From contig CAYFPS010000001.1 of the NCBI GenBank assembly GCA_964345075.1, positions 133,726-197,725 on the forward strand: a DNA stretch of 64,000 nucleotides, given 5' to 3'. Position numbers and translations under genes: made by a program. Source of the DNA: an uncultured Bacteroidaceae bacterium (lineage in GTDB: Bacteria > CAIWAD01). Shown here piece by piece: positions 27,670-37,524 of the stretch. The notes below the pieces were generated by a model. That model did not search any database. It was not told the DNA's origin and saw nothing but the letters and a program-made list of their open reading frames with translations. Numbering within the stretch: the stretch's first letter is position 1; every line of letters starts with the position of its first letter.

Positions 27670-28332
27670 TCAGTAACCCAGTTCGCGCAGGCGGTCCATG
27701 CTCAGATTTCCGCCAGCAGTGGGATCGCTATTGTGGCGAAGCAGCTGCTCCATGTACTTCGCCAGACAGTCAAATTCAACATTGATGCCGTCACCGGCGG
27801 AAAGCCGGCCCAGCAGTGTCGCTTCAAGCGTGTAGGGAATAAGCGCAACGCGTATCACGGCCTCCTGGCCTTCTACCAGAGCATCGTGACTCAGGGTCAG
27901 GCTGACGCCGTCCAGGCAGATCGATCCTGTGCGTGGCGTATAGCGCGCGAACTCAGCGGGCACAGCCAGGTGCAAAAGCTTACCCGGCCGCGCATCATCC
28001 AGCCGCCGGACACGCCCCACACAGTCCACATGGCCCTGCACAAAATGACCGCCCATTCGGGTGCTTGGCAGTAGCGCGCGCTCCAGATGCAGCCTGTCGC
28101 CCGCAACAAGCTTCCCGATGCCGGTCTTGGACAGTGTCTCGGCTACCGCCTGTACCCGGACCGTTTCCCCATTCCGTGATACAACCGTCAGGCAGACGCC
28201 ATTAACAGCAAGTGAATCTTCCGGCTTGACATCAGCAAGCACGCGATCACAGGCAATGAAAAGCTCAGCGCCATCTCCGGCTGGCGTGATGCGCTGCAGT
28301 GTGCCGATTTCTTCAACTATTCCGGTGAACAC
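27670..28332 (-). CDS. ribE: Riboflavin synthase alpha subunit
   Basis: (V)FTGIVEEIG... canonical start. AGGAGG lies upstream of a probable GTG start; the annotated ORF extends to 28371. Confidence 0.8.
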
Positions 28333-29387
28333 ACATCCTCCTGACGACGCCAGATGCGCCACATGTCGCAACCATGCCAGGTGGTCGCCAGCTGCTTCAA
28401 GCCAGACTGAAGCAGCCGCTCATTCGCGGGAGCAGGAACTCCTCCCGATAAATCAAGCGGTGATACAATCTGCACCGCCTCATCAACCAGGCCGGCTTCC
28501 AGAAACGACTCAAGCACGCGCACACCTCCCTCAACCAGCACACCATTCAGACCCCGGGATTGCAGGTCTTCCAGAAGTTCTTTCAAGGGCCAGCGCGGAA
28601 GGCTATCGTGTAATACAAACTCCAGCTCACGCCCGGCCAGCCGTGTTGCCAGCTGCTGATCAGTCTGCAATCCGGCATAAACAAGCGAACGCACACCTGC
28701 CGGCTTAAGGCCTTCTGCAGCGGCCAGCCTGGCCCTGCCATCCAGCACAACCCGGGCTGGCGCGTTTCCCGGTTTCCCGTCAAGACCCAGGCGCGGCCGG
28801 TCAACCAGAGCGGTCTGAGAACCAACAAGAATGGAGGGCAACCAGGAACGCAGCTGTATCACAGCCTTGCGGCTTTCCGCGCCGCTTATCGCCGAACGCC
28901 TGCCGGGCGCTTCAGCGATGAAGCCATCCCGGCTTTCGGCCCACTTAAGCAGCACGAAGGGCCTGCCCTTTTCTACAAAGGAAAAAAAGGGGGCATTGAG
29001 TCGCCGTGCCTCCAGTTCCAGCAGACCCACATCCACCTTGAGCCCAGCCCTGCGCATGCGGGAAAGCCCGCGCCCGGCCACCAAAGGGTTGGGATCGGGC
29101 GTTGCCACCACGACACGCTTTGGCCGGTAGGCGATGACCAGATCTGCACAGGGCGGCGTCATCCCCGTGTGCGAGCACGGCTCGAGGGTGACAAAGAGCG
29201 TGGCATCGGAAGCATCCTGCCTGGCAAGCTGCTTAAGGCAGTTCACCTCCGCATGGGCTTCGCCGGCCCGCTGGTGAGCGCCTTCGGCCAGTACCTCTCC
29301 GCCCCGGGCAAGCACAGCTCCCACCATCGGGTTGGGACTGGTGGCGCTGCCGGCCATTCGAGCCAGCATGAGCGCGCGGCGCATCAT
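28317..29387 (-). CDS. ribD: Bifunctional diaminohydroxyphosphoribosylaminopyrimidine deaminase / 5-amino-6-(5-phosphoribosylamino)uracil reductase
   Basis: MMRRALMLARMAG...HAEVNCL...LEPCSHTG deaminase zinc motif plus a reductase domain. Start ATG is at 29387. Confidence 0.9.
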   Translation of the reverse strand: MMRRALMLARMAGSATSPNPMVGAVLARGGEVLAEGAHQRAGEAHAEVNCLKQLARQDASDATLFVTLEPCSHTGMTPPCADLVIAYRPKRVVVATPDPNPLVAGRGLSRMRRAGLKVDVGLLELEARRLNAPFFSFVEKGRPFVLLKWAESRDGFIAEAPGRRSAISGAESRKAVIQLRSWLPSILVGSQTALVDRPRLGLDGKPGNAPARVVLDGRARLAAAEGLKPAGVRSLVYAGLQTDQQLATRLAGRELEFVLHDSLPRWPLKELLEDLQSRGLNGVLVEGGVRVLESFLEAGLVDEAVQIVSPLDLSGGVPAPANERLLQSGLKQLATTWHGCDMWRIWRRQEDVCSPE

Positions 29388-29498
29388 GGCAGTATCGGTC
29401 TGCGAAAACACGGCATCCTTACAGGCTGATGGGGAAAAGGAGAAAGTGGGCGCATAGCGCACCCTTGGCAGGCGGCAGGCACAGGACCCGTGGCTTGC

Positions 29499-29620
29499 GT
29501 CTCTCTCCCATCCGGACTTTAACCGTCGGCATCCGAATTTCACGGATTCAGTCCCGAATAAACCGGGAGTCGCGGGCTGTCACCGCCGGCAGGGAATTTC
29601 ACCCAACCCCGAGAAACGAT
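29499..29620 (-). promoter_or_regulatory. FMN riboswitch (RFN element) leader of the rib operon
   Basis: Minus strand reads CTCGGGGTTGGGTGAAATTCCCTGCCGGCGGTGACAGCCCGCGACTCCCGG...GGACTGAATCCGTGAAATTCGGATGCCGACGGTTAAAGTCCGGATGGGAGAGAGA. These are the canonical RFN conserved blocks. It lies upstream of ribD. Confidence 0.9.
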
Positions 29621-31372: not shown

Positions 31373-31548
31373 GTCATTCCGTGGAAGATCGCCTGATTCG
31401 ACTTGAGGAGAAAATCGCGCACATGGAGCGCCTGCTGGAACAGCTCAATCAGGCCACCCTGGATCAGGAGCTGCGCATTGAGCGTGTGCAGGCCGGACTT
31501 GAACATGTGAAGCACAGCGTTGCCAGCACAGGCGGTAGCGATTCGTGA
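31369..31548 (+). CDS. slyX: SlyX-family coiled-coil protein
   Basis: 59 aa. VEDRLIRLEEKIAHMERLLEQLNQ... is a SlyX-like heptad pattern. AAAGGAG RBS present. Start overlaps the patatin stop. Confidence 0.6.
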   Translation: MSHSVEDRLIRLEEKIAHMERLLEQLNQATLDQELRIERVQAGLEHVKHSVASTGGSDS

Positions 31549-33005
31549 TACAAGACGCCAAGCGCCTGCTGACAGAAATCTGGGGACACTCAACCTTTCG
31601 TGGCAGCCAGCAGGCCGTAATTGAGCGGACACTTGGCAAACAGAGCACGCTCTGTATCATGCCGACAGGCTCGGGCAAGAGCCTGTGTTATCAGATTCCC
31701 GCCATGTTGCTGGATGGCTGCTGCGTGGTTGTATCACCGCTGGTCGCCCTGATGAAAGATCAGGTTGACCGCCTGAAGACCCTGGGCGTCCGCGCCGAGA
31801 CCATCAACTCCAGCCTTTCCCGCGAAGCCCGAGAAGCCGTTCAGGCAAAGCTTGGAGATGACCCTCCGGATCTGCTCTACGTTACGCCAGAGCGCTTCAG
31901 AAAGCCCGAATTCCGCGAGCAACTGACGCAGCTGAAGGTCAACCTGCTGGCTGTGGACGAGGCGCACTGCATCAGCGAATGGGGCCATGACTTCAGACCC
32001 GATTACACACGCATGCGCGAGATCCGCGGGCTTCTGGGCAATCCACCCGTGATCGCCCTGACGGCCACGGCAACGCCTTCTGTGCAGGAGGACATTCGCC
32101 AGCAGCTGGGCTTGGAAGCCCGTGACTTTCCCGTGATTCACGATGGCGTAGAGCGTCCGAATCTGGCGCTGGCCGTAGGCGACATGCACGGCGAGGCTGA
32201 AAAGATCCGTCGCATTCAACAGCTGCTCGCCCGCGCGCGCGGATCGGCAATCCTCTACTTCGCCCTGATCAAAACGCTTAGTCAGTTCAGCCTCAAACTG
32301 GAAAAGGCCGGGATCAGGCACATCGTGTATCACGGCAAGCTGAGCGCAGCAGAGCGCAGGCGAAATCAGGAAGCCTTCATGCAGGGCCGCGAGAGGCTTG
32401 TGCTGGCAACCAACGCTTTTGGTCTTGGTGTTGACAAGGCCGACATCGGCTTGATCATACATGCCGAAGCGCCGGGAAGCCTTGAGGCCTATGCGCAGGA
32501 AATCGGCCGCGCCGGGCGTGATGGCCTGCCCGCTCACTGCGAGCTGCTCTACGATCAGCAGGATCTGCTGATTCAGATGGAATTTGTGGACTGGGCCAAT
32601 CCCTCGCCGGATTTCACCGAGAGGCTATTCGGGCTGCTCAAGAGTCGCCTGCGCGAGTTTCAGGGCAAGGGCGGGCTGGAGGCGCTGCGCGAAGAAATGG
32701 TCTTCAAAACCCGTGGCGACTTTCGACTGGAAACGGCCATCAGACTGCTTGAACGACACGGTGCGCTGGAAGGCGACCTGGACGAGCATAATCTGCGGCT
32801 GAAGGTCGATGAGCTGCCCGATCTCCTGGCCGATCCCGACTGGATTGAGTCCAAGAAAAAGCGCGATCTCTCGCGCCTGCACGACCTGGTGCGTTATGCC
32901 GGGGAGGAGATATGTCGCCGCAGCTGCCTGCATGCGCATTTTGGCTTTAATGAAACAAGGCCTTGCGGCATCTGTGATTTGTGCATGATGGATAGCGCGG
33001 TTTAG
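31545..33005 (+). CDS. recQ: ATP-dependent DNA helicase, RecQ family
   Basis: FRGSQQAVI...MPTGSGKSLCYQIP, DEAH (VDEAHCISEWGHDFR), and RecQ-Ct zinc-binding Cys cluster. 486 aa. Confidence 0.9.
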   Translation: MIQDAKRLLTEIWGHSTFRGSQQAVIERTLGKQSTLCIMPTGSGKSLCYQIPAMLLDGCCVVVSPLVALMKDQVDRLKTLGVRAETINSSLSREAREAVQAKLGDDPPDLLYVTPERFRKPEFREQLTQLKVNLLAVDEAHCISEWGHDFRPDYTRMREIRGLLGNPPVIALTATATPSVQEDIRQQLGLEARDFPVIHDGVERPNLALAVGDMHGEAEKIRRIQQLLARARGSAILYFALIKTLSQFSLKLEKAGIRHIVYHGKLSAAERRRNQEAFMQGRERLVLATNAFGLGVDKADIGLIIHAEAPGSLEAYAQEIGRAGRDGLPAHCELLYDQQDLLIQMEFVDWANPSPDFTERLFGLLKSRLREFQGKGGLEALREEMVFKTRGDFRLETAIRLLERHGALEGDLDEHNLRLKVDELPDLLADPDWIESKKKRDLSRLHDLVRYAGEEICRRSCLHAHFGFNETRPCGICDLCMMDSAV

Positions 33006-33034
33006 CTGGTGTAGGTGTGTTAGGGTTGGTGTAT

Positions 33035-33073
33035 GAAAAGTGCCAGACACGTGCCAGACACGTGTCTGGCGCC
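33035..33073. repeat. GAAAAG-led palindromic repeat, copy A (truncated): TGCCAGACACG TGCCAGACACG TGTCTGGC
   Basis: Direct copy of the element at 33383-33438. Perfect hairpin GCCAGACACGTGTCTGGC, located 30 nt after the recQ stop. Confidence 0.8.
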
Positions 33074-33382
33074 CGGCTTGCCTGAACCACCGCTACATGC
33101 CACCTTGTTAGCCAAGCCAAACTTTGGGGCGCGCAGGTGAAAGCAGCTGAAAAATCGGTCGCATCGTGGTGGCGACGGTTTAGCCAATCAGCCAGAAAAT
33201 TGGGCCCATATGCCTTCTTCTTCTTTCTGGCCAAGGGCCTTCTCTGGCTCATTCTGCCCAGCCTGCTGCTGATTGAGTCCTGCGCGCTTTCCTGATCTCC
33301 AGGCTGAACTTCCAGAACGTTATCCTCCCCGGGGAGCCAGAGCCATCGTCTTACGAGGATAGCTGTGCGATGATTTCGTAAA

Positions 33383-33438
33383 GAAAAGTGCCAGACAGGT
33401 GCCAGACACGTGTCTGGCACCTGTCTGGCACCGTGTCC
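33383..33438. repeat. GAAAAG-led 42-bp perfect palindrome, copy B: TGCCAGACAGGTGCCAGACACGTGTCTGGCACCTGTCTGGCA
   Basis: 21-bp perfect inverted arms around a CACGTG core. Matches copy A with one half-site substitution. Confidence 0.8.
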
Positions 33439-33501
33439 ACTTTCCCTGTCAACTCTCCCCCCAATTCACGATCCTTCGGCCACAGCGAGGAGGACCCTTC
33501 C

Positions 33502-34212
33502 ATGAAAACGAATCAACCAAGCATCGAGCATCTGGTTCATCGGCAGGCCAGGCTCTTTGATCTGCGCAGCCGCTTGCAAGTTGAGCCCAGTGAAAAGGTT
33601 CAGCCCTTCATTACCATTTCCCGCGAGTTTGCCTGCACGGGCTTCCGGCTTGGCATGGCTCTGCTGGACTGCCTGAATGCAGGCCTGATGGAAGAAGAGC
33701 AATGGTCCATTTATGATCGCCGCATTTTCGAGCTGATCGAGGGTGATCCGGAAATGAATCGCCGCTTTTTTGAGGAGCACATTCAGCGGCGCAACATGGA
33801 GTTCGAGGAATACCTCAATTCAACCTTTGGCTCGGCGCCTTCGGACATCAGTCTCTTCAACCGCTGGGCCAATGCCATGCGCAACCTGGCGCGCAAGGGC
33901 CGCTGCATTTTCGTCGGTCGCGCCAGTCAGCTTGTCACACGGGATATCCTCGGTGGCATCCACATTCGCATTGTAGCGCCCTTCGAATGGCGGGTGGCTG
34001 AGCACGCCAAGAACTACGGCCTGCTGGAAACCGAAGCTCGCACACTTACCCGGCTTAAAGACCGGGAGCGAAAGGAGTTCCTCAACCGTTACTTCGGTGC
34101 GGACACGACAGACACTTCCGGCTTTCACCTGCTTATCAACAACGCGCTTGTATCACAGGATGACATGGTGCGCATCATTCTTGGGCTGATGGGAATGAAG
34201 TGCAGGAAATAG
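33502..34212 (+). CDS. Cytidylate-kinase-like family protein (P-loop NTPase fold, PF13189-like)
   Basis: MKTNQPSIEHL...PFITISREFACTG... CMP-kinase-like N-terminus. GAGGAGG RBS. The annotated ORF extends upstream into the palindrome. Confidence 0.55.
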   Translation: MKTNQPSIEHLVHRQARLFDLRSRLQVEPSEKVQPFITISREFACTGFRLGMALLDCLNAGLMEEEQWSIYDRRIFELIEGDPEMNRRFFEEHIQRRNMEFEEYLNSTFGSAPSDISLFNRWANAMRNLARKGRCIFVGRASQLVTRDILGGIHIRIVAPFEWRVAEHAKNYGLLETEARTLTRLKDRERKEFLNRYFGADTTDTSGFHLLINNALVSQDDMVRIILGLMGMKCRK

Positions 34213-34296: not shown

Positions 34297-37200
34297 CTAC
34301 TTGACCAGCAACATCTTCTCCACCGCGCTTCCATAAGCGCTTTCCACACGCAGCACATAGAGTCCGGCCGGACGACCCGCCATGTCCAGTGATACATTGT
34401 GGCTGCCAGCATTCAGCCCGGCAACCAGCTGCCGCTCGACACGCTGTCCAGCCAGATTGTATACGGCCAGCTCGACATCGCCCATGGCTGGCATGCTGAA
34501 GGCCACAGTGGTCGTGGGGTTGAAGGGGTTCGGGTAAAGGCCCGTCAGCTCAAAGCGCCCGGGAAGGGACTTCGGATCACTGACATCATTAAAGTCCGCC
34601 GTGCCGCCCGCATCATGATAGCGCTGGGCGAACTCCTGCAGGTACTGGTTGGCAATCAGGTTGTCGTGTATCACAACCAGATTTTCGTCGTTATCGTATT
34701 CGGCACTGTTGGACCAGTTGTAGCTGCCCGTGATCACCATTGGATCGCTGCCGGGCTCTTCAGCATCAATGATCATGTACTTGTGATGCAAAATGCCCGT
34801 GCCCGCATCGGTGAAGATATCGGCACCCCAGGCCTGCATTAGCGCGTACTCGCTGTACTGGTCGCCCTCGTCATCAAACACACCACGCACGGCCGCGCCG
34901 CGATCAAAGGCATCGTTCATGGCGTAATTCAGCTCGTTGCGTGTAAAGACCAGAATGCAGAAGTAGATGGACTCTTCAGCCGTGTCGATGTAGTTGACCA
35001 GACGCTGGCTGACATTGTCGCCCTGGCTGAAAAGCACTTCAACAGGCACACCGCCTACCGTGAAGTACTTGGGCGTGTTGTTCGTCTTGTAGGCGCCGTA
35101 GCGTGCCTCGGTGGGATCAGGCGTCATGCCCGCGCTGCCCCACATCTCATTGAATTCCATCGTATACGCACGCGCCACGGCCTGATCGGCAATCAACACA
35201 CTGTTCTGCTTGGCCCAGATGCCGTAGCTGCTGGGTTCATCAATCAGGTTGAGGCTGCCCGTCCAGACACGGTCATTGGCAGGATCATCGTCGGCAGCGT
35301 CAACCACGATGAACTTGTTGTGCTGAATTCCGGCACCCGGGTGGGTACCAAAGTGATTGTCGATCACGGTCACACCGGCGTTTTCAATCTGGGCCACTTC
35401 GCCCTGACTGTGATCGGCATCATAGATGAAGCGCACGGCCACACCGCGATCGTGTGCGTCAATAATCGCCTGCGCGATCTCAAAAATGTTCAGGCTGTAG
35501 ATGGCGCAGTCGAGACTGACCGTCGCTCCATCAATCAGGTTGATGATCTCACTCAAGACATCGTGATCGCCGTTGGCTTCGTTGCCGGGGAAGGCATAGG
35601 CCGGGTCCACATCCTGTGTAAAGAAGACCTCGATGGTACCGGGGCTGCCGGCGGACACGGTCGAAAACCAGTAGGTGCCGGCCATGCTGGCGCCATCTTC
35701 GTTCCAGGCGCCGATGCGCGCCCAGTAGGGCGTTCCGGCATCAAGGCCGTCCAGGGTCACCTCATGAGTTGTGGTGCTGTTGCCAAGGGCAAGGCTGTCG
35801 AGAATTTCGCCGTCCAGCGTACCGTGTACGACAATGGTTCCACCAGGATTCTGGCTCTGCCAGGAAAGCGTGACGGAACTGGTCGTGTGATCGCTTTCAA
35901 AGGGGCCGGCCGCCAGACCCGGTCCGGCAATCTGAATCTGATCACTCAAAAGACGGGGCTGTAGCTGATAACCACTGGTATGCGGAGCGCTGAAGTCGTA
36001 CTGACCAACCACGCCCACCAGGTCGAACTCACCGGCAGGAATGGGCGCGCCCACCAGCCCGCAGGAAGCATTGATACGAACCGTCGTTGAACCCGTCGCG
36101 TCGCTCACCGAATAGTTTGTATTACCGGCCCAGGTGCCGGAGCCTTCAACCGTGATACCGCTCAGGCGAACCAGCATGCCTTCCCAGGGCTCGCCGGCGG
36201 CACCCTGGTTTTCGATATCGGCGCAGCCCAGCAGTGCAGGCTCAACATCCACGCCAGTAGCGTTGGTGGAAAGAATCGTAGCGGGGGTGAGCTCAACAAG
36301 ACCATTGTAAAGCGTGACCACACCCAGCACGGTCACATCGTCGCCGATGCTCACGGCATTGGAAAAGGCGAAATCGTAACACACGATGCCGCCCGTTGCG
36401 TCCTGCATGTAGGAGGCGCTGCCCAGCTGATTGGAGGCCGTGACCACACCGCGAACCACAACCGTTTCGCCCAGCAGGTAAGGAATACCGTTGGTGTCGT
36501 TGTTATGCAGTTCGGCGATTTCGATCGGGTCGCCGATCACATTGATCACGGGCGGGGTACCGATAATGGAAGGAACACCGCCCTCAACGGCCGTACGCAC
36601 GGCAATTGTATACGGACCGCTCGCGGTGGTAAAGGAAACCTGTGTCAGCTCGAAAGTCCCGGAAACACCCGTATTCACGGTCGATCCCGTCACACGCCAG
36701 GTATCACCGTCCTGCTCCAGGCTGGCTCCGGAAAAGCCGTCACCGCTCAAGTTGACCTCGGCAGCCGACCAGCCCGCGGGCAGCTCAAGCTCGATGGTGG
36801 GCAGCAGGTATTCGCCGCCCGTAATTGTCACATCAAAATCCTCAGGGCCGGGCGCGTAGAGTTGAGCCACGCTGCAGGTGGCCGTTCCGGAACCATCCGT
36901 CAGCGGCTCGTCCGGCTCGGGCGTCGAGCTCGAGTTCTGCGGATTGGAATTACCCAGGGCGTGTATCACAAAGTCGGCTGCGTTGTTGCCGCTATCCCAG
37001 GCGTTTCCTTCAAGACTGTGCGCGCCACCGGCCACCATGTCGGCCAGCGTCGAGTTTTCAAAGGCCTTGCGCTCAAAGGATGCGCCGCGCTCGTGAGCAT
37101 CCAGCCCAGTGCCCTCGGGAGAGTCTGCAGCCAGCCAGCCCACGCGGTCGATCTCTTCCTGTGAGCCATTGATGATGCGCACATGGCCGCCGCTGTTGCC

Positions 37201-37524
37201 CAGTCCCATGGCAACGGTAAAAGGATAGTCAGGCGTGGTCTCGGTGGATGTGCCGCCAATCAGCAGGAAGCTGTGCGGGCCAATCTGCGCTCCAGCGGCA
37301 AAGGTCTGCTTGTCCAGCCAGCTGTCGCCGGTGGAGGACTTGTACTGCAGCTTCCAGCCGCTCATGTCCACACTGAAGTTGGTTGGATTGTAGAGTTCGA
37401 CAAACTCTTCCAGCACAAGCGAGGTCTCGTAGAAGCGAAGCTCGCTGATCACCGGGTAGTCGGCCATCTGGGCCAGAAGGGGGCCGGCCACCATCAGTCC
37501 GGCAAGCAGGGGAAGTGTCTTCAT
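34297..37524 (-). CDS. Secreted lamin-tail-domain / phospholipase-D (HKD) superfamily protein with T9SS C-terminal sorting domain. Candidate extracellular nuclease or phospholipase.
   Basis: Signal peptide. N-terminal lamin-tail-like region (LYNPTNFSVDMSGWKL). Two HKD motifs (IQHNKFIVVD, ILHHKYMIID). C-terminus GLYPNPFNPTTTVAFSMPAMGDVELAVYNLAGQRV...VEKMLLVK. Confidence 0.75.
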   Translation of the reverse strand: MKTLPLLAGLMVAGPLLAQMADYPVISELRFYETSLVLEEFVELYNPTNFSVDMSGWKLQYKSSTGDSWLDKQTFAAGAQIGPHSFLLIGGTSTETTPDYPFTVAMGLGNSGGHVRIINGSQEEIDRVGWLAADSPEGTGLDAHERGASFERKAFENSTLADMVAGGAHSLEGNAWDSGNNAADFVIHALGNSNPQNSSSTPEPDEPLTDGSGTATCSVAQLYAPGPEDFDVTITGGEYLLPTIELELPAGWSAAEVNLSGDGFSGASLEQDGDTWRVTGSTVNTGVSGTFELTQVSFTTASGPYTIAVRTAVEGGVPSIIGTPPVINVIGDPIEIAELHNNDTNGIPYLLGETVVVRGVVTASNQLGSASYMQDATGGIVCYDFAFSNAVSIGDDVTVLGVVTLYNGLVELTPATILSTNATGVDVEPALLGCADIENQGAAGEPWEGMLVRLSGITVEGSGTWAGNTNYSVSDATGSTTVRINASCGLVGAPIPAGEFDLVGVVGQYDFSAPHTSGYQLQPRLLSDQIQIAGPGLAAGPFESDHTTSSVTLSWQSQNPGGTIVVHGTLDGEILDSLALGNSTTTHEVTLDGLDAGTPYWARIGAWNEDGASMAGTYWFSTVSAGSPGTIEVFFTQDVDPAYAFPGNEANGDHDVLSEIINLIDGATVSLDCAIYSLNIFEIAQAIIDAHDRGVAVRFIYDADHSQGEVAQIENAGVTVIDNHFGTHPGAGIQHNKFIVVDAADDDPANDRVWTGSLNLIDEPSSYGIWAKQNSVLIADQAVARAYTMEFNEMWGSAGMTPDPTEARYGAYKTNNTPKYFTVGGVPVEVLFSQGDNVSQRLVNYIDTAEESIYFCILVFTRNELNYAMNDAFDRGAAVRGVFDDEGDQYSEYALMQAWGADIFTDAGTGILHHKYMIIDAEEPGSDPMVITGSYNWSNSAEYDNDENLVVIHDNLIANQYLQEFAQRYHDAGGTADFNDVSDPKSLPGRFELTGLYPNPFNPTTTVAFSMPAMGDVELAVYNLAGQRVERQLVAGLNAGSHNVSLDMAGRPAGLYVLRVESAYGSAVEKMLLVK

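Follow-up and report, generated by a model that had tools for sequence, protein, structure and literature searches.

What kind of DNA element separates a recQ-like helicase gene from a cytidylate-kinase-like gene in an uncultured Bacteroidaceae bacterium? The question is raised by two long palindromes, hereafter arrays A and B, which lie between these genes in the 64-kb stretch of DNA analysed in this work (the window). Both palindromes are real and far beyond chance, and they represent a previously undescribed yet recognisable kind of bacterial hairpin repeat. The reading that we tentatively favour, with somewhat less than even confidence, is that the arrays belong to a low-copy, dispersed family of hairpin repeats similar to repetitive extragenic palindromes (REPs) or to long terminal inverted repeats (TIRs). 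Loci outside the window, mostly contigs from metagenomes or metagenome-assembled genomes (MAGs), are labelled L002 to L040, and the features of the locus are collected in Table 1.

Array B is a perfect palindrome, as the first-pass annotation of this DNA had recognised, although its length is 44 nt and not 42. Array A had been described as a shortened version of the same unit, and it is indeed a three-unit copy: comparison with L029 and L035 shows that a fourth unit has been lost. The 11-nt consensus, GTGYCWGRCAC, is a dyad in itself and fits forward and reverse units alike. The two arrays are in direct orientation with a start-to-start distance of 348 bp, in agreement with the spacing of about 350 bp noted earlier, and both are covered by a 70-nt repeat (D1) with 77% identity and the same 348-bp spacing, their 5' flanks being homologous. 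Seven unit matches were counted in the window against 1.43 expected, a number reached by none of 100 shuffles; the expectation for the 18-mer core was 0.03, and the degenerate unit gave four exact matches against 0.13 expected. RNA folding returned -44 kcal/mol (z = -8.9) for B and -27.8 kcal/mol (z = -4.5) for A, and no other long hairpin occurs in the window. No further array was detected in the window, where the possibility that the palindrome occurs only here thus holds, but it fails across databases.

In four relatives with 70-76% amino acid identity (L010, L011, L012 and L015) the gap between recQ and the kinase-like gene measures just 68-95 bp and contains no array, so the block of about 430 bp at approximately 33010-33439 is lineage-specific. 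In L013 (3380-3860) the gap holds three tandem repeats of about 160 bp, each with a different long imperfect palindrome whose core, GTGTATCCGGCAcc aTGCCGGATACAC, is flanked by GAAAG...CTTCC; with another kind of palindromic repeat carried at this spot, the recQ-kinase gap is evidently permissive for repeated hairpin DNA.

In the sister clade (L029 and L032-L040) the order recQ, A, ORF52 (an open reading frame, ORF, described below), B and kinase-like gene is kept, while the arrays vary by 11-nt steps in unit number and orientation, even among near-identical strains. Array A is forward-reverse-reverse in L033, L034, L036 and L037, forward-forward-reverse-reverse in L035 and a four-unit variant in L029, and array B has three units in the sister clade versus four in the window. 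Identity to the sister clade amounts to 87-88% for the arrays and 86-87% for their 5' flanks, to be compared with a neutral level of about 60-65% taken from the spacer after ORF52 and from recQ third codon positions; the 5' flank of A is 86% identical to the sister clade and matches L029 at 23/23 positions. A GAAAAG leader, proposed earlier as a feature of the repeat, does precede both arrays in the window, but it is not conserved, and sister-clade copies have GTAGGAGAG before B in its place. A, B and the unrelated locus L017 instead share a longer 5' flank that reads G[GA]TT..GTA[TAG] and continues as a run of purines. Independent metagenome assemblies break at or beside A or B (at the start of L002, the end of L029 and the starts of L037-L040), several of them exactly at the array, which fits either a unit number that varies between strains or a difficulty in assembling palindromes.

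The same units are dispersed over other genomes. An exact scan of species-representative genomes with the 18-mer core returned seven loci, four of which are Verrucomicrobiota MAGs with the full 22-nt palindrome; two of the Verrucomicrobiota loci lie in a single MAG, both in divergent intergenic regions (L004, lysA/EVE, and L006, TPR/ROK-kinase). The orthologous Verrucomicrobiota loci L003, L006, L008 and L028 are 98% identical and too close for conservation testing. A scan of metagenomes with a 20-mer yielded 13 contigs corresponding to about 10 independent loci, seven with extra units in exact 11-nt register. Arrays of two to four units thus occur at unrelated loci in Verrucomicrobiota MAGs and on soil and freshwater metagenome contigs, next to genes that are functionally unrelated (ABC transporter, aldehyde dehydrogenase, amidinotransferase-like, LacI-type regulator, pilin-like, tRNA-Pro). 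No match to the core or to a degenerate three-unit pattern was found in viral contigs (0 matches), and plasmids gave no match to the 44-mer.

Lineage-specific "master" 44-46-mers could be recognised among these copies, with the outer unit GTGCCTGACAC in L017, L022 and L029, and GGTGCCAGGCAC in L016, L019 and L020, some of the latter copies lacking one outer unit, and decayed partial copies occurred beside them. Array A, the array in L029 and that of the unrelated tRNA-Pro locus L017 are all preceded on their 5' side by GGTTGGTGTATGAA, and the recurrence of this sequence at separate loci argues that the repeat module includes flanking sequence. Across six four-unit arrays, two-sided changes were present in 4/20 stem pairs and 95.8% of the cells were paired, a result reached by at most 3 of 500 shuffles; as two-sided changes keep the arms complementary, the dyad is actively maintained.

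A protein-database search with translated array peptides added a single locus, L030, in which two arrays of four and two units lie 110 bp apart (1164-1295), flanked by an epimerase gene on one side and a TetR/RND efflux operon on the other. Each L030 array is followed by CAAC(C/T)T, and a good TTGACA-17-TATTAA-like promoter lies downstream of the arrays. In L025 (130-215) a second perfect palindrome of 24 nt, built from a related 12-nt unit (GGTGCCTGTCCC GGGACAGGCACC), stands beside the 22-nt palindrome with another copy upstream, which suggests sister unit types with a GTGCCWG core.

The segment enclosed by A and B had been regarded as non-coding and devoid of a convincing ORF, and this part of the earlier description has to be abandoned. 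A homologue of ORF52 that is 81% identical (P0024) is a gene called by the Joint Genome Institute (JGI) at the same position after recQ on contig L029; codons 19-52 show four synonymous versus one conservative change, and the frame and its GTG start are intact in L029 and in nine sister-clade contigs (L032-L040). Judged from this conservation, ORF52 is a real gene, predicted to encode a membrane peptide. It had no Pfam match and no family assignment, and a collection of 5.8 billion proteins contained a single 90%-cluster homologue. Several annotations have overlooked ORF52, with no gene called there in L032-L036. The 157-aa frame on the opposite strand had already been taken for an artefact of the repeat, and rightly so: it overlaps both the recQ 3' end and ORF52, and in L033 it is split into shorter ORFs by 10/11-nt and 1-nt indels. 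An origin of the insert by tandem duplication of the kinase 5' region was considered and rejected, as segment 33073-33387 has no similarity to downstream DNA. Processing hairpins of a small RNA, another role once proposed for the palindromes, do not fit an interior made of a conserved ORF followed by an unconstrained spacer; Rfam searches of the region and of the whole window returned on the hairpin only sub-threshold, spurious matches resembling microRNA precursors, which did not reach the gathering score.

Table 1. Features of the recQ-kinase interval, in window coordinates.
Feature	Position	Strand	Description
recQ-like helicase gene	31545-33005	+	Upstream neighbour; Pfam DEAD, Helicase_C, RecQ_Zn_bind
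Spurious 157-aa ORF	32947-33420	-	Starts at a GTG inside array B; overlaps recQ 3' end and ORF52
Array A 5' flank	33012-33039	+	TAGGTGTGTTAGGGTTGGTGTATGAAAA; belongs to the repeated module; homologous to the B 5' flank (D1)
Array A	33040-33072		Three 11-nt units, GTGCCAGACAC GTGCCAGACAC GTGTCTGGCGC; two forward, one reverse with one mismatch
ORF52	33137-33295	+	52 codons, GTG start, basic N-terminus, one hydrophobic helix
Unconstrained spacer after ORF52	33296-33355		57-60% identity, with indels, to relatives
Array B 5' flank	33360-33387	+	Distal part TAGCTGTGCGATGATTTCG conserved; proximal part TAAAGAAAA (GAAAAG leader) not conserved
Array B	33388-33431		Perfect 44-nt palindrome, four 11-nt units: GTGCCAGACAG GTGCCAGACAC / GTGTCTGGCAC CTGTCTGGCAC
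Probable leader/promoter region of the kinase-like gene	33440-33501	+	Begins 8 nt 3' of array B
Cytidylate-kinase-like gene (PF13189)	33502-34212	+	Downstream neighbour; true start is the ATG at 33502

Among the roles first proposed, that of a REP-like structural element or of a miniature inverted-repeat transposable element (MITE) is the best supported, by the dispersal across loci and phyla, the empty sites in relatives and a transposase-like fragment beside one array, with the reservation that copy number is low here. Each copy is a module comprising a conserved 5' flank of about 30 nt and two to four head-to-tail 11-bp units, the whole array being palindromic. The repeats would be extruded as single-stranded hairpins, on which a protein similar to HUH (Y1) tyrosine transposases, of the RAYT (REP-associated tyrosine transposase) or TIRYT type and encoded elsewhere in the genome, might act in trans. 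At the present locus, two copies in direct orientation form the ends of the block of about 430 bp, which may have been inserted as a unit carrying ORF52 between recQ and the kinase-like gene. The arrays evolve fast by gain and loss of 11-nt units while the arms remain complementary. As a local side effect, strong hairpins in the recQ, ORF52 and kinase transcripts would part three genes that lie side by side in relatives and are probably transcribed together there.

The lead to a transposase comes from L021, where an array lies 52 nt 5' of a minus-strand ORF truncated by the contig end, with 41 aa left. In a tblastn search of a plasmid collection this fragment had a sole match, residues 1-40 of a Legionella protein annotated as "transposase"; pairwise BLASTP of the two gave 43% identity (E = 6e-8), and when the Legionella protein was used as phmmer query the fragment was the sole match among 4134 ORF fragments (E = 0.0023). 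The Legionella protein belongs to Pfam Y1_Tnp and scored 79 bits, just under the cutoff of 80, with the NCBIfam model "REP-associated tyrosine transposase". This Legionella plasmid transposase (L031, 1001-1864) also has a C-terminal helix-turn-helix, weakly similar to the Bac_DnaA_C and Sigma54_DBD models. A domain binding double-stranded DNA on a RAYT-like protein could matter for recognition of the 11-bp unit. The fragment was absent from a protein cluster collection.

The closest published description of the arrays is that of the TIR repeats by Di Nocera et al. (2013, PMC3733652), according to whom RAYT-like genes are flanked by GTAG REPs or by long, sometimes self-complementary TIRs, the latter forming moderately abundant families often arranged as dimers, while REPs tend to be located 3' of genes, in convergent or unidirectional intergenic regions. 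The arrays resemble the TIRs of TIRtrons and TIRYT genes (PMC3733652), which are long repeats of non-GTAG type, some of them wholly self-complementary, in families of only moderate abundance and often in short-distance dimers, but differ in that no TIRYT gene with arrays on both sides was seen, only one truncated gene, and in their 11-nt tandem build, which is not described for the TIR class. Searching the literature for the unit and core sequences turned up eukaryotic primers only, all of them unrelated.

With REP/REPIN-RAYT systems the arrays share the character of short, GC-rich, dispersed extragenic palindromes of lineage-specific sequence, often paired and with decayed singletons; they are stem-loop-forming palindromes with cores of 22-44 nt and fold z-scores from -4.5 to -10.5, and one of them (L021) adjoins the start of a RAYT-like gene. 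Unlike REPs, they have perfect stems with no bulges and a modular build of two to four tandem 11-nt units, and the unit is seen across phyla. The ends of IS200/IS605 elements and palindrome-associated transposable elements (PATEs) are comparable for having two similar same-sense subterminal hairpins that end a small element, homologous short guide-like sequences 5' of each hairpin foot, and a long left overhang (at least about 30 nt) with a short right one (at most 8 nt). The differences here are that neither tnpA nor tnpB is present, that the hairpins are perfect palindromes and hence not strand-specific, that target and cleavage sites are undefined, and that the cargo is a conserved host-like mini-gene.

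Several findings weigh against a REP/TIR-like nature of the arrays. Copy number looks low, as neither the rest of the window nor about 130 kb covering other loci contains a further array, and at least two loci occur in one Verrucomicrobiota MAG; genomes with classical REPs have tens to hundreds of copies. The stem has no GTAG or CGTC tag directly next to it; GTAT, GTAA or GTAG stands 5-7 nt upstream of the array, and the GTA[T/A/G] tetranucleotide is absent from the Verrucomicrobiota copies. The window and all loci besides L021 lack a Y1_Tnp gene, and the 41-aa fragment of L021 alone had no Pfam or NCBIfam match and only insignificant, unrelated PDB matches (E 0.6-1.7). All placeable arrays stand 5' of at least one gene, about six of them between divergent genes and none between convergent ones, opposite to the reported REP bias. 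The relatives with empty sites are too diverged for insertion boundaries or a target site to be defined, their intergenic DNA being unalignable. Finally, conservation of arrays and flanks above the neutral level points to constraint at the host level and not to a decaying selfish repeat.

Most of these points (the low copy number, the missing adjacent GTAG, the lack of a Y1 gene in the window, the promoter-side placement and the above-neutral conservation) also support the main rival explanation, which we consider possible though on balance unlikely, namely that the arrays are operators or upstream regulatory sites. A dimer of a putative regulator would bind each 11-bp dyad as double-stranded DNA, one unit per helical turn and with the proteins on one DNA face; A would control ORF52 and B the kinase-like gene, looping might bridge both, and arrays elsewhere would control other genes. 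It ranks first among the rivals because of the position of every array 5' of a gene and because arrays and flanks have diverged less than neutral sites. Units recur once per helical turn (11 bp) and each is a dyad in itself, and the frequency of asymmetric three-unit arrays suggests that units matter beyond hairpin formation. At all placeable loci (about 11) 21-100 nt separate the array from the gene start or tRNA on its 3' side; short divergent promoter regions hold several of the arrays (L004, L006, L016 and, between the epimerase gene and the TetR/RND operon, L030), and paired arrays within one intergenic region are found twice, in the window and in L030. Array B, moreover, abuts a kinase leader of which 58/62 nt (93.5%) are identical to the sister clade, exceeding the kinase coding sequence. 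As estimated from the counts, tests of the location bias (divergent versus convergent) lose significance once intergenic length is taken into account.

The operator pair proposed in the first-pass annotation finds support in placement and conservation, but no candidate regulator gene is linked to any array, and the neighbouring genes share no functional theme that would make a coherent regulon. It is also unusual for operators that specific 44-mers are copied together with their flanks between unrelated loci, and that unit number and orientation vary among near-identical strains. In a comparison by eye, none of the parS, dif/Xer, attC, LacI-type, CRP-type, NifA/NtrC and PpsR motifs fits. Operator arrays of ribbon-helix-helix or iteron-type proteins (Arc, CopG, omega, Rep iterons) are similar in having short units at about one per helical turn, in mixed direct and inverted order and in promoter regions, and differ for the same reasons: the arrays have no linked cognate protein gene, do not resemble known operators and are copied with flanks between loci. 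A more speculative combination, to which we attach little probability, is that GTGYCWGRCAC is the specific target of a so far unrecognised DNA-binding protein of wide distribution, for example a domesticated RAYT-like HUH protein with a C-terminal helix-turn-helix; the arrays would then be a promoter-proximal control element shared across phyla (Verrucomicrobiota, Delongbacteria-like and others) and tuned in strength by gain or loss of units of one helical turn, and in the window two such elements would have captured a new mini-gene between them.

It is improbable that the hairpins act purely at the RNA level, A terminating or stabilising the recQ transcript and B that of ORF52, or, in a variant, both serving as 5' stabilisers or RNase III sites for downstream genes, with no need for recognition by a specific protein. 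The folds are very stable and lie 34 nt past the recQ stop codon for A and 92 nt past the ORF52 stop for B, and the stem mismatches of A in the window and in L029 are both G.U on the plus (sense) strand; such pairs, however, account for just 2/4 of the stem mismatches examined. When examined as intrinsic terminators, neither A nor B proved to be followed by a T-run on the plus strand, so that the sense transcript has no U-tract, and a terminator-like score was obtained on the minus strand alone, where both arrays are followed by CTTTTC. Furthermore, the array in L017 sits after a canonical terminator, several arrays lie between divergent genes with nothing to terminate, unpaired extra units recur, and structure alone does not explain the conservation of the unit sequence across phyla.

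Site-specific recombination sites around a cassette (attL/attR, Xer-module or integron-like), with ORF52 as cargo, constitute a very improbable explanation, in which crossover would take place at CACGTG, between a pair of inverted 11-bp arms bound by the recombinase, and the extra units would be accessory. Direct repeats do bracket a small single-ORF insert, an 11-6-11 parse is possible, the forward-forward-reverse order resembles FRT, and relatives have an empty site. The empty sites nevertheless lack the single array copy, no recombinase gene is nearby, most family members are solo and bracket nothing, and a symmetric crossover region gives no directionality. Integron attC sites and clusters of attC sites lacking an integrase (CALINs) also show a hairpin, a small ORF and a hairpin with no integrase nearby, but the arrays have no R''/R' boxes (the AAC...GTT signature of attC), no extrahelical bases and no dif resemblance, and are perfect in their stems and mostly solo.

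Lastly, a sigma-54 promoter mimic, suggested by the CTGGCAC of reverse units and by the GG-N10-GC geometry that 11-nt spacing yields (TGGCGC-N5-TTGC in array A of the window, TGGCAC-N5-TGGCA in tandem reverse units), was rejected as hardly credible because the spacing is not conserved: in the orthologous array of L029 it is 1 nt shorter and TGG is changed to AGG, and in addition single palindromes at other loci lack a -12 element and unit order differs in the sister clade.

As for the neighbouring genes, region 33440-33501 is probably the promoter or leader of the kinase-like gene; it has no sigma-70-like consensus, a sigma-70 promoter scan returned 0 sites, and its CTTTCC motif is also present in array-less relatives. 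Beyond the kinase-like gene, the minus strand of the window (34297-37524) encodes a 1075-aa secreted protein with a Lamin-tail domain, DUF5689, two PLD-like domains and a C-terminal sorting domain of the type IX secretion system (T9SS), whose gene adjoins the kinase-like gene in relatives too. The T9SS tail of this protein is one pointer to a Delongbacteria-like source organism. A flavin mononucleotide (FMN) riboswitch (RF00050, 109 bits) at 29496-29620 on the minus strand, 5' of a ribD-like gene, is unrelated to the arrays; the mechanically called ORF 28317-29543 begins within this riboswitch, so its true start must lie further downstream.

In practical terms, the arrays interrupt metagenome assemblies, and GTG starts within the palindrome seed false gene calls: the 157-aa ORF is one, and the kinase-like gene is given N-terminal extensions. 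Should the arrays be operators, they would point to an unknown regulator whose site is unusually conserved. If, as we tentatively prefer, they are REP/TIR-like repeats, this class extends to little-studied phyla (candidate Delongbacteria and Verrucomicrobiota) with an unusual modular build in which 11-nt units expand and contract, and its members are able to enclose, and perhaps to deliver, a small gene.

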